This document shows positions 28,007-33,200 of a stretch of DNA of 64,000 bases, in pieces. This DNA is from Escherichia phage AV124: sequence record OR352954. One strand, 5' to 3'. The position numbers and the translations under genes are program-made. The first letter of the stretch is position 1, and each line of letters opens with the position of its first letter. The notes under the pieces were generated by a model. The model did not search any database, was not told the DNA's origin, and saw only the letters and a program-made list of their open reading frames with translations.

Positions 28007-28501
28007 ATGACAGTTAGTATTCATGGGATTCTTTCCCATCGGAGACTGATGGAACTGAAGAATTGTAGAGTCGTCGAGCCTGAATTTTTCGAGTCCGAGG
28101 TGACAAAGTATTACAATCTCTATCTGAAGGTTGTGGCTGAGTCACTTTATAAAATGAATGACGGGTTCTTCACCCGAATGATTTATAGCCGTCCCGCTGC
28201 CGAGCGGGATGCCTCTTGGATGTTCCCGGATCGTCGTGACCTGCTGGAGCATTTGATTTACCTGGATGGGAAATCTCAGTACGTGAGTTTGACCAAAGAA
28301 GAGCTTAACCACTTTACGCTGTTGCATCAGGCAGCAGTAGCCTCAGAACGCGCCAAAAGGGTTCTTCTGTGCTTTAAGTACAGCGATCAAGTCCTTGTGG
28401 ATGATGATTCAGGGTTCAATATAGACTGGTTGTTACGGAATGCATACACATTACGACAACTGATTGTAGACGCGAATGGGGAGACACAAGATGCAGAATA
28501 A
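28007..28501 (+). CDS. hypothetical protein
   Basis: ORF with GGAGGAG RBS. Confidence 0.45.
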   Translation: MTVSIHGILSHRRLMELKNCRVVEPEFFESEVTKYYNLYLKVVAESLYKMNDGFFTRMIYSRPAAERDASWMFPDRRDLLEHLIYLDGKSQYVSLTKEELNHFTLLHQAAVASERAKRVLLCFKYSDQVLVDDDSGFNIDWLLRNAYTLRQLIVDANGETQDAE

Positions 28502-29408
28502 CGACAAAAAGAATTACTTTGGTTTCGGTGGGGGTTTTGGTGGGGAAGGTTCTTTCTGTTACCCAATGCCATCCCATGAGCATGTAATCTACATCCACGA
28601 TTTGGATTATATGGAAGATCACTTTAATAAATTACAACAAATTCGCCAAGCCAATCCCGACGATATGGTGCGTGTGATCATCAATACCTATGGTGGTCGT
28701 GTTGATATTGCAATGGCTTATGTGAGCGCGATGCGTGAGAGTCAAGCAACCGTGGTGACCCATGCAGAGGGGCAGGTGTGTTCTGCTGGGACAATCTTGT
28801 GGTTGGCTTGCAAAGAACGCACTGTAGCCCCGATGACGGAATTCATGTTCCACAACTATCAGGGAGGGGCATATGGAGACGGGGCCAATATCTATACCCA
28901 GGTGCTGTTCTACAAACAGCATTTCGATCGTTTAATCGATTATTTCTACAAGGGTGTTTTGACTGATGGGGAGATCAATACAATCAAGGGTGGTGGGCAG
29001 GTATGGCTGGATGAAGTGGAGATTACTAAAAGAACCCGTGCAGTAATCCTGGATGATAAAAATATCGAAAGGATGAAGTCAGGTAAAAATCCTATCGTAA
29101 ACCCCACTGGAAAACAGGCGGAGAAGGTTGCGGAGGAGAGTGTTGTTGGGACTGACGCTGAGAAATCAATTTGCTTGAAAGTGCATGTTGATGGGGAGGT
29201 TTTCTCTTTTGATGTAAGGACTCTAAAAGCCTCGGATTTCGATTCCTTTAATATTGACGAGATACAGAGTATTCTGTCACAGGTTGGTGCCTTGGCCCAA
29301 GGTGAGGAAGAACCTTTGGAGATTACCTCTCGTGATCGTAAGGCACTTATCGAAGCTATGCTTACAGCAGCTCAAGTAATAGTTGATACATACGGAGAAG
29401 ACGCATAA
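28491..29408 (+). CDS. ClpP-like (S14/S49) serine peptidase
   Basis: INTYGGRVDIAMA, GQVCSAG (Ser), MFHNY (His) in ClpP-like order. Confidence 0.5.
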   Translation: MQNNDKKNYFGFGGGFGGEGSFCYPMPSHEHVIYIHDLDYMEDHFNKLQQIRQANPDDMVRVIINTYGGRVDIAMAYVSAMRESQATVVTHAEGQVCSAGTILWLACKERTVAPMTEFMFHNYQGGAYGDGANIYTQVLFYKQHFDRLIDYFYKGVLTDGEINTIKGGGQVWLDEVEITKRTRAVILDDKNIERMKSGKNPIVNPTGKQAEKVAEESVVGTDAEKSICLKVHVDGEVFSFDVRTLKASDFDSFNIDEIQSILSQVGALAQGEEEPLEITSRDRKALIEAMLTAAQVIVDTYGEDA

Positions 29409-30091
29409 TGAGTGCTCCCCTGAAGAAAAAGGGGGAGCGTAGGGATTATGACGTCTATGAGACTCCTGAATGGGCCGTACAGGCCCTTTTGGATGTTATC
29501 CCTATCAACCCATCATGGACATACCTAGAGCCTTGTAGAGCGTCTGGGAGGTTCTATAATCACATGCCTCTCGGTTCAGCTTGGGGTGAAATTCGTGAAG
29601 GTGTAGATTATCTCAGTACCGATTATCCAAATCATGTTGATTGCATCATCACTAATCCTCCATATTCGTTGGCCCAAGAGTTTGTGACAAAAGCTCTTGA
29701 CGATGCCGATGTTGTGATTATGCTTTTGCGGTTAGGATTCCTTGAGAGCATGAAACGCTGGGAATGGTGGCAAGAGAATCCTATCACCAGTTTGATGGTG
29801 TTGTCTCAAAGACCATCGTTTACTGAAGATGGTAAAACAGATGGAAGTGGCTACGCTTACTTTGTTTGGGATAGAAAGAACAGGCTGAATCTTAAGCCAT
29901 TTTATTTTTTGGAGGGACAAGACGATGAGTGCCGCAAGCAAGATGCGAGGGATCGCAGAAATCGCAAACGCAGCAATCCCGCCCGAGATGAACCAGTTGT
30001 ACGACAACATGGTGGAGGGGATTCACCAATGTGCCAAGAAGGGACTTTTGGGGATGGGGATGGTGATAGATCTGCCGGATCACCTGCTTGA
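29408..30091 (+). CDS. N6-adenine DNA methyltransferase (C-terminal boundary uncertain)
   Basis: Motif I LEPCRASGRF, motif IV IITNPPYS; low-complexity Arg/Asp/Gly tail overlaps next ORF. Confidence 0.55.
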   Translation: MSAPLKKKGERRDYDVYETPEWAVQALLDVIPINPSWTYLEPCRASGRFYNHMPLGSAWGEIREGVDYLSTDYPNHVDCIITNPPYSLAQEFVTKALDDADVVIMLLRLGFLESMKRWEWWQENPITSLMVLSQRPSFTEDGKTDGSGYAYFVWDRKNRLNLKPFYFLEGQDDECRKQDARDRRNRKRSNPARDEPVVRQHGGGDSPMCQEGTFGDGDGDRSAGSPA

Positions 30092-30203
30092 TTATTTGCC
30101 TCATATTATTGCTGATCTTCGTGGTGGAGGTTTCGAGGTTGATGTCGTAGAAGTTGAACCCTCTATGCAAGGCATTAGAGCACGATTGTATATTACATGG
30201 TAA
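29925..30203 (+). CDS. hypothetical protein
   Basis: ORF ends immediately before strong terminator; overlaps MTase frame by ~167 nt. Confidence 0.45.
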   Translation: MSAASKMRGIAEIANAAIPPEMNQLYDNMVEGIHQCAKKGLLGMGMVIDLPDHLLDYLPHIIADLRGGGFEVDVVEVEPSMQGIRARLYITW

Positions 30204-30230
30204 ACCTGCTTCGGCAGGTTTTTTTTTTTC
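30203..30230 (+). terminator. rho-independent terminator
   Basis: aacctgc-ttcg-gcaggtt hairpin followed by T10. Confidence 0.7.
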
Positions 30231-30240
30231 GTTTTTTCAC

Positions 30241-31165: not shown

Positions 31166-31432
31166 ATGAAAGTAACTGCATTTGTGAAATATGATTTGTA
31201 TCCGTATTACGTTGTTCTTGAGGGCGACCTGCAAGATAATTTCGATGTGAAAACATCATGCGGTACATATAACCGTGGAAAGGTGATATGTGTCAGACCA
31301 ATTGATGAGTTTGGTAAACACCAAGAGGCTCGCAATACTATTACAAAAGAATATGATCGACTTCATCGTCAATTAAAGGTTGACGTGTTGAGGCATAACG
31401 GTGTAAACTTCATCAACACAGAAAATTTCTAA
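31166..31432 (+). CDS. hypothetical protein
   Basis: ORF. Confidence 0.45.
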   Translation: MKVTAFVKYDLYPYYVVLEGDLQDNFDVKTSCGTYNRGKVICVRPIDEFGKHQEARNTITKEYDRLHRQLKVDVLRHNGVNFINTENF

Positions 31433-31442
31433 GGAGAAAAGA

Positions 31443-31944
31443 ATGAGATCCATTGTTCCGGTTAAGGGCTTGGAGGGATTATACTCTGTTAACTTTTTCG
31501 GAGCTGTGTATTCTCATCGGTCTGAAAAATTTCTGAAACCAGAAAGAATGCCAGACGGATACCTACGTTATACACTAATTGATGAGAGGGGCAGAAAAAT
31601 ACGTAGGCAGGCCCATATCTTTACCTTGGAGTCCTACCCTGGAGGTATTTATCAAGAAGAGGTCAACCATAAGGACCACGTCAGGGATAACAATTGGATT
31701 GGAAACTTAGAGTGGGTGTAATGTAGAGCACGGGAAATCAAGAAGCTTCATAATTACATTTCCCGATGGCAGAAAAGAGAAGGTATTCAACCTCAGTAAG
31801 TTTTGCAGGGACAATGATTTACACTTGGGGGCAATGCATGAAATGGCAACGGGAAGGATTAGAGAAGGAAGATCCCTAAGAACTCACCACAAAGGTTATT
31901 TCTGTGAATATGACCAGGACTATACAGAATCAGGAGAATGGTAA
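31443..31944 (+). pseudogene. disrupted HNH homing endonuclease (NUMOD4/HNH N-terminal ORF plus out-of-frame C-terminal segment)
   Basis: 31443..31721 encodes GLEGLYSVN...VNHKDHVRDNNWIGNLEWV then stop; a +1 frame stays open ~73 codons to 31944. Confidence 0.45.
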
Positions 31945-33200
31945 TGCAAGATAAGAAGATCTATTTGGTTGGTGGAGCCGTAAGGGACTCCTTGCTCGGT
32001 AGGCCCGTGCATGACAAGGACTATGTTTGTGTCGGGTACACACACGAAGAGATGATCGCCGCCGGATTTACACAGGTTGGTGCAAATTTTGCAGTATACC
32101 TTCATCCTGAAACCAAAGAAGAATACGCACTGGCCCGTACTGAGCGCAAAACGGGTGAGGGCCATACTGGCTTTGAGACCTTCTTCAGCCCGGATGTAAC
32201 TCTGGAAGAGGATTTATCGCGTCGTGACCTGACGATCAATGCGATGGCTAAAGACATGGAAACAGGATTTATCATTGATCCGTTCAACGGTATGCATGAC
32301 CTGTGCAACAGGACTCTTCGTCATACCACTTCGGCATTCATGGATGACCCATTACGTATCCTGCGACTTTTCCGATTCAAGGCCCAGCTGGGTGATGGTT
32401 GGACTGTCGATCATGAGACATATAGTCTCGCTTACAACAACCGTTACCGCCTGGCAGAAATTAGCCCAGAACGCAAATGGAAGGAGATGGAGAAAGCTCT
32501 TAATTCCAACAACTTTATGAGTTATGCTTACGAAATGGCCGTGCTTGGTGAACTCCCAGAGCTAGATGCCCTTCATGGTGTAGAGCAACCACCTGAGCAT
32601 CATCCAGAGGGTGATGCCTTCATCCACACCCTGATGTGCCTGGAGCAGGCAGACAAAACCTTTTGCTCTCCTCAGGTGAAATTTGCGGTGCTGTGCCATG
32701 ACTTTGGAAAGGCGATCACTTTCCGTAAGTACGGTAATCTCCTCGGTCATGAAGAAGCTGGTCTTGATCCTGTGCGGACGCTGTGCAGTCGAATTCGAGT
32801 TCCTAACGAATTCAGGGATATTGCACTGTACGTGACAGAGCACCATACTCGTGTGCATTGCATTTTGGGCCGTGGGAATAATAAAGGAATCAAGCCACGT
32901 TCCATGATGAAGCTTTTCGAAGCCGCAGGTAACGTGGCTAGTCAGAAGACACAGGACAAGGTGTTTGCCTTAGCAGACGCTTGTTTCTGCGATGCCCGTG
33001 GTCGTGGTGCCACGCACGCAGATAAGGAATACCCGCAAGGAAAAATTCTCCTTGATGCTTTCGATGCGGTTGTAAATACGGACAGCAAGGCGGTATCTTC
33101 AGCAATGCTGGAGAAAGGAAAAAGCGGCAAGGAGATCGGTGAGGCGATCCGTGTTGCACGTATTGATGCAATTCGTAATGTCCTTAAGGAGAGATCATGA
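31938..33200 (+). CDS. CCA tRNA nucleotidyltransferase (Pol-beta head + HD domain)
   Basis: N-terminal GGAVRDSLLGRPVHDKDYV motif; C-terminal HD-type region. Confidence 0.75.
   Translation: MVMQDKKIYLVGGAVRDSLLGRPVHDKDYVCVGYTHEEMIAAGFTQVGANFAVYLHPETKEEYALARTERKTGEGHTGFETFFSPDVTLEEDLSRRDLTINAMAKDMETGFIIDPFNGMHDLCNRTLRHTTSAFMDDPLRILRLFRFKAQLGDGWTVDHETYSLAYNNRYRLAEISPERKWKEMEKALNSNNFMSYAYEMAVLGELPELDALHGVEQPPEHHPEGDAFIHTLMCLEQADKTFCSPQVKFAVLCHDFGKAITFRKYGNLLGHEEAGLDPVRTLCSRIRVPNEFRDIALYVTEHHTRVHCILGRGNNKGIKPRSMMKLFEAAGNVASQKTQDKVFALADACFCDARGRGATHADKEYPQGKILLDAFDAVVNTDSKAVSSAMLEKGKSGKEIGEAIRVARIDAIRNVLKERS

Follow-up and report, generated by a model that had tools for sequence, protein, structure and literature searches.

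Overlapping extensions that arise by stop loss are well documented in viruses, as are T/A depletion and disorder in overprinted frames, and extensions of this kind have long been reported from the phiX174-like phages as well as from many other viruses (PMC8227390, PMC8788219). Here we analyse such a feature in Escherichia phage AV124 (sequence record OR352954), of which a stretch of 64,000 nucleotides (nt), called the window below, was studied. In the window, an open reading frame (ORF) for a predicted N6-adenine DNA methyltransferase (MTase) runs out of frame into a 92-codon ORF, ORF92. The two ORFs share positions 29925-30091 (167 nt), and relative to the MTase, ORF92 is read in the +1 frame. 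Our analysis indicates that this overlap is probably a conserved out-of-frame C-terminal extension of the MTase that arose by overprinting, i.e. an 'overlapping extension'. The 227-amino-acid (aa) annotation of the MTase is correct and no 'repair' of it is warranted. No published description of the MTase/ORF92 overlap was found in our literature searches.

The MTase ORF is placed between a ClpP-like protease gene and a cluster of small genes. The nucleotide identity of the region was 88.7-90.5% to Mydovirus phages of Klebsiella, Raoultella and Proteus (Vequintavirinae), and the window belongs to a Mydovirus-like (Vequintavirinae) phage. A first-pass annotation, made from the letters of the window without database searches, had given ORFs at 29408..30091 and 29925..30203, their out-of-frame overlap of 167 nt and a terminator at the end of ORF92, and all of these were confirmed. 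The terminator stem has 8 bp (AAACCTGC/GCAGGTTT) with a TTCG loop and is followed by a T run; a stem-loop and T run were also found at the equivalent spot in related phages.

The MTase matched phrog_799 ('DNA methyltransferase') over residues 1-226 with an E-value of 1.9e-86, and this was the sole model with a strong match. It did not pass the curated family models of Pfam and NCBIfam, scoring 15.4 bits against a cut-off of 26.4 for EcoRI_methylase, 14.3 against 28.1 for Dam (PF05869) and 12.3 against 97 for TIGR01712. Catalytic motif IV was NPPY (residues 83-86), in which N83, P84 and P85 were invariant among 50 homologues, and the enzyme has no separate target-recognition domain. Its AlphaFold model had a mean predicted local distance difference test (pLDDT) score of 84, with values above 90 across roughly residues 20-168. 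A Foldseek search with this model returned the adenine MTases HsdM (2okc), PacII, CamA and TaqI (E 1.7e-5 to 1e-4, probability 1.0).

The PFYFL motif (residues 164-168, nt 29897-29911) marked the end of MTase conservation in the 50-sequence alignment. Homologues at the greatest distance terminate 0-6 residues past this motif, and those outside the clade of the window stop at 166-180 aa, directly after PFY(F/W)(L/V). In the phage collection, 585 records matched the MTase, only 70 of them over at least 80% of its length. Matches from rV5-type phages, Certrevirus, A5-4 and Phapecoctavirus spanned residues 1 to ~168 only, in ORFs of 169-179 aa. Judged from these alignments, the native MTase is the core to about residue 168, and we assigned it as a predicted N6-adenine DNA methyltransferase. 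The first-pass view that the domain is complete by about position 29900 agrees with this boundary and with the lack of a tail in deeper homologues. The residues beyond L168 are called the tail in the following.

The alignments and the predicted fold of ORF92 show it to be a real gene of full length that belongs to the rV5 gp119 family (phrog_12158) and encodes a small alpha/beta protein. The phrog_12158 profile matched residues 1-92 at profile positions 3-94 of 94 (E = 2.7e-21). Up to residue 84, ORF92 aligned without gaps with homologues from Seuna-, Henuna- and Vequintavirus, including rV5 gp119, and the rV5-type gp119 is a homologue that is overlapped by nothing. Invariant residues of ORF92 (A11, P19, V30, G40 and G43) are encoded within the overlap. 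In all lineages, a Shine-Dalgarno (SD)-like GGAGGG, GGAAGG or AGAGG and an ATG or GTG start were found at the homologous position, and in the MTase frame the GGAGGG also encodes the conserved 'EG' of 'LEG'. The AlphaFold model of ORF92 (mean pLDDT 85.7) showed the order alpha-alpha-beta-alpha-beta-beta, with its helices 3-13 and 20-38 encoded by the overlap. The gene order, MTase followed by the gp119 homologue, is kept in rV5, FV3 and all overlap lineages.

The same 684-nt MTase ORF and the same overlap were present in at least 33 independently sequenced Mydovirus genomes, and versions of 660-684 nt were found in Seuna-, Henuna- and Avunaviruses and in metagenomic contigs. A scan of IMG/VR gave 12 loci, mostly duplicates of GenBank genomes. 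In a neighbour-joining tree of the MTase core, which is rough and was not used for the order of events within the clade, the 'LEG'-tail forms made one clade, with the rV5- and CR3-type enzymes outside it; the tail is restricted to this one clade of MTase homologues. In rV5-type phages, a single ATGA holds the stop of the 177-aa MTase and the start of gp119, which lies in the +2 frame and overlaps the MTase by 4 nt. In the clade of the window, ORF92 is in the +1 frame and the TGA of the surviving ATGA (29926-29928) is out of the MTase frame; therefore the MTase reads through. This frame relation is identical in all clade members, while the position of the first in-frame stop varies. Most members have 55 overlapped codons, and their stop is a TGA that arises from xxT-GAT where ORF92 encodes its conserved Asp56. 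The overlap is shorter in others, with 48 codons in FENT2, 34 in L030, ~22-26 in L028, L029 and the divergent L037, and 8 in L039. The frame was open for at least 47 overlapped codons in 14 of the 17 sampled lineages, and 12 of those 14 end at the Asp56 TGA.

These comparisons also bear on the explanations offered in the first-pass annotation. The lost stop codon proposed there stands as an old evolutionary event, as the rV5-type MTase ending on ATGA indicates, and does not stand as anything recent. Whether homologues share the extension had been named as the deciding test. Within the clade they do, which removes any reading of the tail as an error; deeper homologues do not.

We then recoded ORF92 with random synonymous codons drawn from the codon usage of each phage. 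With this recoding, the median position of the first stop in the MTase frame was codon 5-21, while the actual tail frame was open for 47-55 codons in 8 diverged lineages (P 0.0003-0.047 per lineage). For the window, recoding kept the tail frame open as long as observed in 0.5% of the simulations. The same frame of rV5 gp119 has stops at codons 5, 21, 24, 28 and 37, and that of the window, beyond the MTase stop, has stops at codons 63, 72, 77 and 84. When 80 further putative genes of the window were read in this alternative frame, the first stop fell at codon 8 in the median, and the frame was open for at least 55 codons in 2/80.

The nucleotide composition of the overlap was also distinctive. 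In the window, T occupied 6/53 ORF92 third positions inside the overlap vs 19/36 downstream (p = 3e-5). In the phages with the overlap, the T fraction at ORF92 third positions ranged over 0.06-0.11 in codons 2-54 vs 0.36-0.53 in codons 56-91. The rV5-type gp119 genes showed no such depletion (0.28-0.30), with 0.25-0.31 in both parts. At sites where T would not create a stop, T was found in 65/552 cases inside the overlap vs 241/601 outside over 17 lineages (12% vs 40%, Fisher 1e-28). T was regained in codons 34-54 of the lineages with 194-205-aa MTases (18/63 vs 37/294, p = 0.003). The T-initial codons that are avoided are those for stops, Phe, Leu, Ser, Tyr, Cys and Trp. On this compositional evidence, the tail frame is kept open and free of T-initial codons by selection on ORF92 synonymous sites, and the effect is weak.

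ORF92 is, by the pattern of variation, the dominant and more constrained frame. Variability in the overlap by ORF92 codon position 1/2/3 was 0.34/0.25/0.49. Since the variability follows the phase of ORF92 and the tail has the lower identity, the selection seen is on openness and composition and not on a particular tail sequence. Within the genus, a comparison of nonsynonymous and synonymous rates had too little power, as 9 Mydovirus sequences differed in only 4 columns of 29900-30203 and the background is a mosaic with other low-diversity bins. An impression from the window and GAP31 that the basic segment of the tail is better conserved than ORF92 failed over 14 lineages (ORF92 0.55 vs tail 0.43).

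A separate observation concerns the non-overlapping 3' part of ORF92 (30092-30203). Synonymous sites there were unusually conserved, the codon being identical across genera in 0.75 of the conserved residues, compared with 0.45-0.47 in the ClpP-like gene and the MTase body. Only 1 variable column was found in this part among the 9 Mydovirus sequences. The string CAT ATT GTT GGN GAT CTT CGT is nearly invariant in it, and the window has ATT GCT replacing GTT GGN. Dual coding cannot account for this conservation. No RNA-structure signal was found for 30092-30203 by fold z-score, and an RNA element behind the nucleotide conservation was rejected, with no Rfam match over the threshold (best E 0.08, 27.9 vs 55 bits) and ordinary fold z-scores (-0.56 and -0.02).

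From residue 173 onward, the tail is the -1 reading of ORF92 codons 1-55. As described in the first-pass annotation it is rich in Arg, Asp and Gly, and the 59 residues past L168 include R9, D9, G9, E4, S4, P4 and K2. Pooled over 17 lineages, the tail contained 15% R, 13% D and 14% G, and the residues F+Y+W+I+M+L made up 4% of it vs 30% of the MTase body. Each tail codon is composed of a non-T base, then ORF92 position 1, which is purine-rich, and then ORF92 position 2. The tail is rich in Arg, Asp and Gly because T-initial codons are excluded and the first positions of ORF92 are purine-rich.

The AlphaFold model divided the tail into two parts. Residues 173-189 were predicted to form a basic helix, and the distal part, from about residue 191, was a block of pLDDT 44-56. 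The disordered extension suggested in the first-pass annotation is thus upheld for residues 191-227, which are predicted to be disordered, and not for the predicted helix. Most lineages retain 6-9 Lys/Arg in the proximal segment, and an RDRxxRRK cluster was present in 4/4 MTases of 194-205 aa. The distal part had a mean pairwise amino-acid identity of 0.34 and was partly or wholly absent from the 194-220-aa MTases. In view of the model, helix 173-189 probably serves as an accessory non-specific DNA-binding element.

Two relatives with other basic tails were also seen. The divergent L037 has a gp119 homologue of its own, onto which a very basic tail of 29 aa is overprinted. In L038, a metagenomic relative (P0042), the MTase has a basic C-terminal tail of its own that overlaps nothing (GGWNKPRDRGKGKNKK), with a terminator directly after it and no gp119 homologue. 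Basic tails seem to recur by different routes in this MTase family.

These results are consistent with the following course of events. The ancestral state would have been as in rV5-type phages, with an MTase of ~170-177 aa that lacked a target-recognition domain and whose stop overlapped the ATG of a 92-94-aa gp119-family gene. In the ancestor of the Mydo-, Seuna-, Henuna- and Avunaviruses, the 3' end of the MTase gene may have shifted to the -1 frame relative to the gp119-family gene. The old stop would then be missed, and ribosomes would continue through the ribosome-binding site and the first 55 codons of ORF92 and stop at the Asp56 TGA. A single mRNA that ends at the 30202 terminator would serve for both proteins. 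Within the tail, the proximal basic helix 173-189 may be the part that is of use, and it would give a minimal MTase extra non-specific DNA affinity. The distal Gly/Asp-rich 35-40 residues would be a disordered run-on that is held hydrophilic and is shorter in some lineages.

Several points weigh against the view that the overlap is a conserved extension. The lineages are related by descent and their P values are not independent of one another. Identity was 0.50-0.55 for ORF92 vs 0.34-0.43 for the tail, and in this comparison and that of variability no sequence-specific purifying selection on the tail was detected beyond composition. The MTase of P0027/L039 stops after 8 overlapped codons, and those of P0028, P0030 and P0035 have 167-182 aa. 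These tail-poor relatives are nested in or near the clade, so that the tail is dispensable in relatives that lost most of it and is not essential. Av-05 has a weak basic cluster, and in L035 the cluster is displaced. For both frames, translation is a prediction from sequence, and a DNA-binding role of the helix is suggested by the structural model.

A more far-reaching interpretation is that the tail is a de novo functional module. The basic helix and the acidic Gly/Asp-rich disordered segment would then serve DNA affinity and perhaps self-regulation, and translation of the MTase through the ORF92 start would in addition couple or throttle the expression of the gp119-like gene. We regard this as possible but doubtful. 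If true, a large dsDNA phage would offer a traceable case in which overprinting gave birth to a domain, with all stages (no, short and long overlap) still extant.

It is rather unlikely that the tail is a neutral run-on, in which the MTase, once its stop was bypassed, simply reads to the next one and the tail is functionless and merely tolerated. Such a tail would be expected to evolve faster than ORF92 and to leave the periodicity of ORF92 dominant in the overlap, as was found. Within Mydovirus, 3/3 variable overlap sites alter the tail and only 1/3 alters ORF92. The tail is also of low complexity and mostly predicted to be disordered, and several lineages have lost its distal part and a few the whole of it. 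However, a neutral tail is also expected to shorten quickly. Each lineage with a full-length tail has 12-21 ORF92 sites where a synonymous T makes a stop, and the chance that all of them escape, at the T frequency outside the overlap (28/107), is 0.002-0.02, yet 14 of the 17 lineages are still open over at least 47 overlapped codons. T is moreover depleted at sites where it makes no stop, and this depletion relaxes where the MTase ORF ends earlier. The conserved extension under weak selection for openness and composition remains the reading that we prefer.

The public annotations raise another alternative, namely that there is no dual coding and that the true ORF92 is a 49-aa protein starting at Met44 (nt 30054), so that the overlap codes mostly for the MTase tail. 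In the public annotations and metagenome calls inspected, which included loci L001-L009 and L028-L036, ORF92 usually appeared as 49 aa (Met44) or 86 aa (Met7) or was left uncalled, and only ~19 clusters of full or near-full length were found in a collection of 5.8 billion proteins. The 49-aa form is annotated in several GenBank records (Mydo, PVP-SE1, GAP31 and 4MG), and phrog_15143 (49 aa) matches residues 44-92. But residues 1-43 align without gaps to the non-overlapped rV5 gp119, Met44 is not kept (Cys in rV5, Thr in Hena1), and the SD and the ATG at 29925 are conserved. The variability of the overlap follows the ORF92 frame, and the predicted fold requires helices 3-13 and 20-38. The 49-aa call is what a gene caller that penalises long overlaps is expected to give. 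The 49-aa and 86-aa versions and the omissions are gene-caller artefacts, ORF92 being shortened or omitted because gene callers penalise long overlaps, and we consider a true 49-aa protein very improbable. The overlap described here helps to correct such annotations.

There is similarly little chance of a programmed -1 frameshift or transcriptional slippage at T TTT TTG (29905-29911), which would give two MTase isoforms, one of 173 aa ending at ATGA and one of 227 aa. Read in the MTase zero frame, the heptamer has the X XXY YYZ phase that such a site requires, and the -1 product would end exactly at the ORF92 start and so recreate an rV5-like coupling. It is found in Mydovirus, and Av-05 carries T TTT TTA at the same spot. 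Seuna- and Henunaviruses with the same overlap lack it, however, and have TAT TTC CTG, TAC TTC CTG or TAT CAT TTG instead; the RNA fold downstream is ordinary (z = -0.56) with no Rfam match, and the heptamer simply follows from Tyr-Phe-Leu codons.

A sequencing or assembly indel, also raised in the first-pass annotation, would put the true MTase end near 29911-29928 and could have arisen in the T6 homopolymer just upstream (29905-29910), as miscalls typically occur at such runs and a -1 shift there would end the protein at the TGA at 29926-29928, but this is almost certainly wrong, as the identical 684-nt ORF occurs in the independently sequenced Mydovirus genomes counted above, equivalent long ORFs occur in genera without a T run there, and the dual-coding signature in composition runs across the whole overlap.

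Two further candidates were rejected. An MTase-ORF92 fusion by a +1 shift fails on stops in the ORF92 frame just 5' of its start in Hena1 and Av-05, and no conserved shift site was found. On the minus strand, a 92-aa antisense ORF (29892..30170) covers nearly all of ORF92. It was considered as a third gene, but the same frame is interrupted by stops in the other genera examined. Most likely, this antisense ORF is no gene but a side effect of the T-poor third positions.

The features of the locus are listed in Table 1.

Table 1. Features of the MTase/ORF92 locus in the window, with two predicted peptides of the encoded proteins.
Feature	Position	Strand	Description
ClpP-like protease gene	28476..29408		upstream neighbour of the MTase ORF
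MTase ORF	29408..30091	+	ATG at 29408, 227 codons, TGA at 30089-30091
MTase catalytic core, small N6-adenine type (predicted)	29408..29911	+	residues 1-168
MTase C-terminal extension (probable)	29912..30091	+	residues 169-227 and TGA
Proximal tail	29924..29974	+	residues 173-189, DECRKQDARDRRNRKRS; predicted basic alpha-helix, AlphaFold block pLDDT 86-87
Distal tail	29975..30088	+	residues 190-227; Gly/Asp/Ser-rich, predicted disordered, variable
Shine-Dalgarno GGAGGG for ORF92	29911..29916	+	8 nt 5' of the ORF92 ATG
ORF92	29925..30203	+	ATG at 29925 to TAA at 30201-30203, 92 codons
Dual-coding segment (predicted)	29925..30091		ORF92 codon position 3 = MTase codon position 1
Intrinsic terminator	30202..30231	+	begins inside the ORF92 stop codon; T run after stem-loop 30202-30221
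Tail tryptic peptide			QHGGGDSPMCQEGTFGDGDGDR
ORF92 N-terminal peptide			GIAEIANAAIPPEMNQLYDNMVEGIHQCAK

Some neighbouring regions showed features of their own. Upstream, the 3' third of the ClpP-like gene (29100-29400) was hypervariable against other Mydoviruses, with 27-54 variable columns per 100 nt vs 1-16 in adjoining bins, and the protease-like protein seems to have a divergent or exchanged module as its C-terminal part. Downstream, a 92-aa ORF at 31443-31721 contained a NUMOD4 motif and the first part only of HNH_3, after which the frame was broken by stops to ~31940. The region 31443-~31940 looks like a decayed HNH homing endonuclease. A gene for a CCA-adding tRNA nucleotidyltransferase (31938..33200) lies directly 3' of it. 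Positions 31400-32100 of the window could not be aligned with L001-L003, and at the corresponding site phage Mydo carries an HNH gene that is intact.

One of the closest known systems is the gp118/gp119 pair of rV5 (Vequintavirus). This is an orthologous pair in the same order, between a ClpP-like protease gene and a tRNA nucleotidyltransferase region. The rV5 pair differs in its 4-nt overlap in the +2 frame, the lack of T depletion at third positions and the 5 stops in the first 37 codons of the alternative frame, whereas the overlap of the window has 167 nt and is in the +1 frame. The MTase itself resembles the small orphan N6-adenine MTases of phages (PF05869; TIGR01712, phage_N6A_met) in its size, its NPPY motif, its Rossmann-type S-adenosylmethionine-dependent MTase fold and its phage origin. 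Unlike those enzymes, it scores far below both models, and only phrog_799 captures the family.

As in genes A and C of the phiX174-like Microviridae (PMC8227390), an existing gene has been lengthened at its 3' end into the alternative frame of its neighbour, and the new part would be younger than the overlapped frame and bears an overprinting signature in its composition. Unlike in those phages, the present case is found in a ~145-kb dsDNA myovirus with little genome-compaction pressure, and the extension is mostly predicted to be disordered, varies in length (8 to 55 overlapped codons) and is known at the level of sequence. The locus is also similar to the remodelled 'ORF-ALT' genes (Rancurel et al. 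2009), as far as the account of them given in PMC8788219 extends. There too, a native-frame N-terminal part is joined to an alternative-frame C-terminal part derived from a neighbour, and an existing promoter and start codon drive expression. Compared with the genes in that account, the overlapped parent is here intact and more constrained than the tail, and all stages of the overlap survive.

The biology of the overlap is modest, being possibly an accessory DNA-binding tail on an orphan phage MTase, and current understanding is unchallenged. The locus belongs to an unusually clean natural series for the gain of a C-terminal segment by overprinting. Overlaps of 4 nt (rV5), 23 nt, 68-104 nt and 167 nt coexist, those of 68-104 nt carry the basic helix only, and the T-depletion signature shifts with the stop codon.

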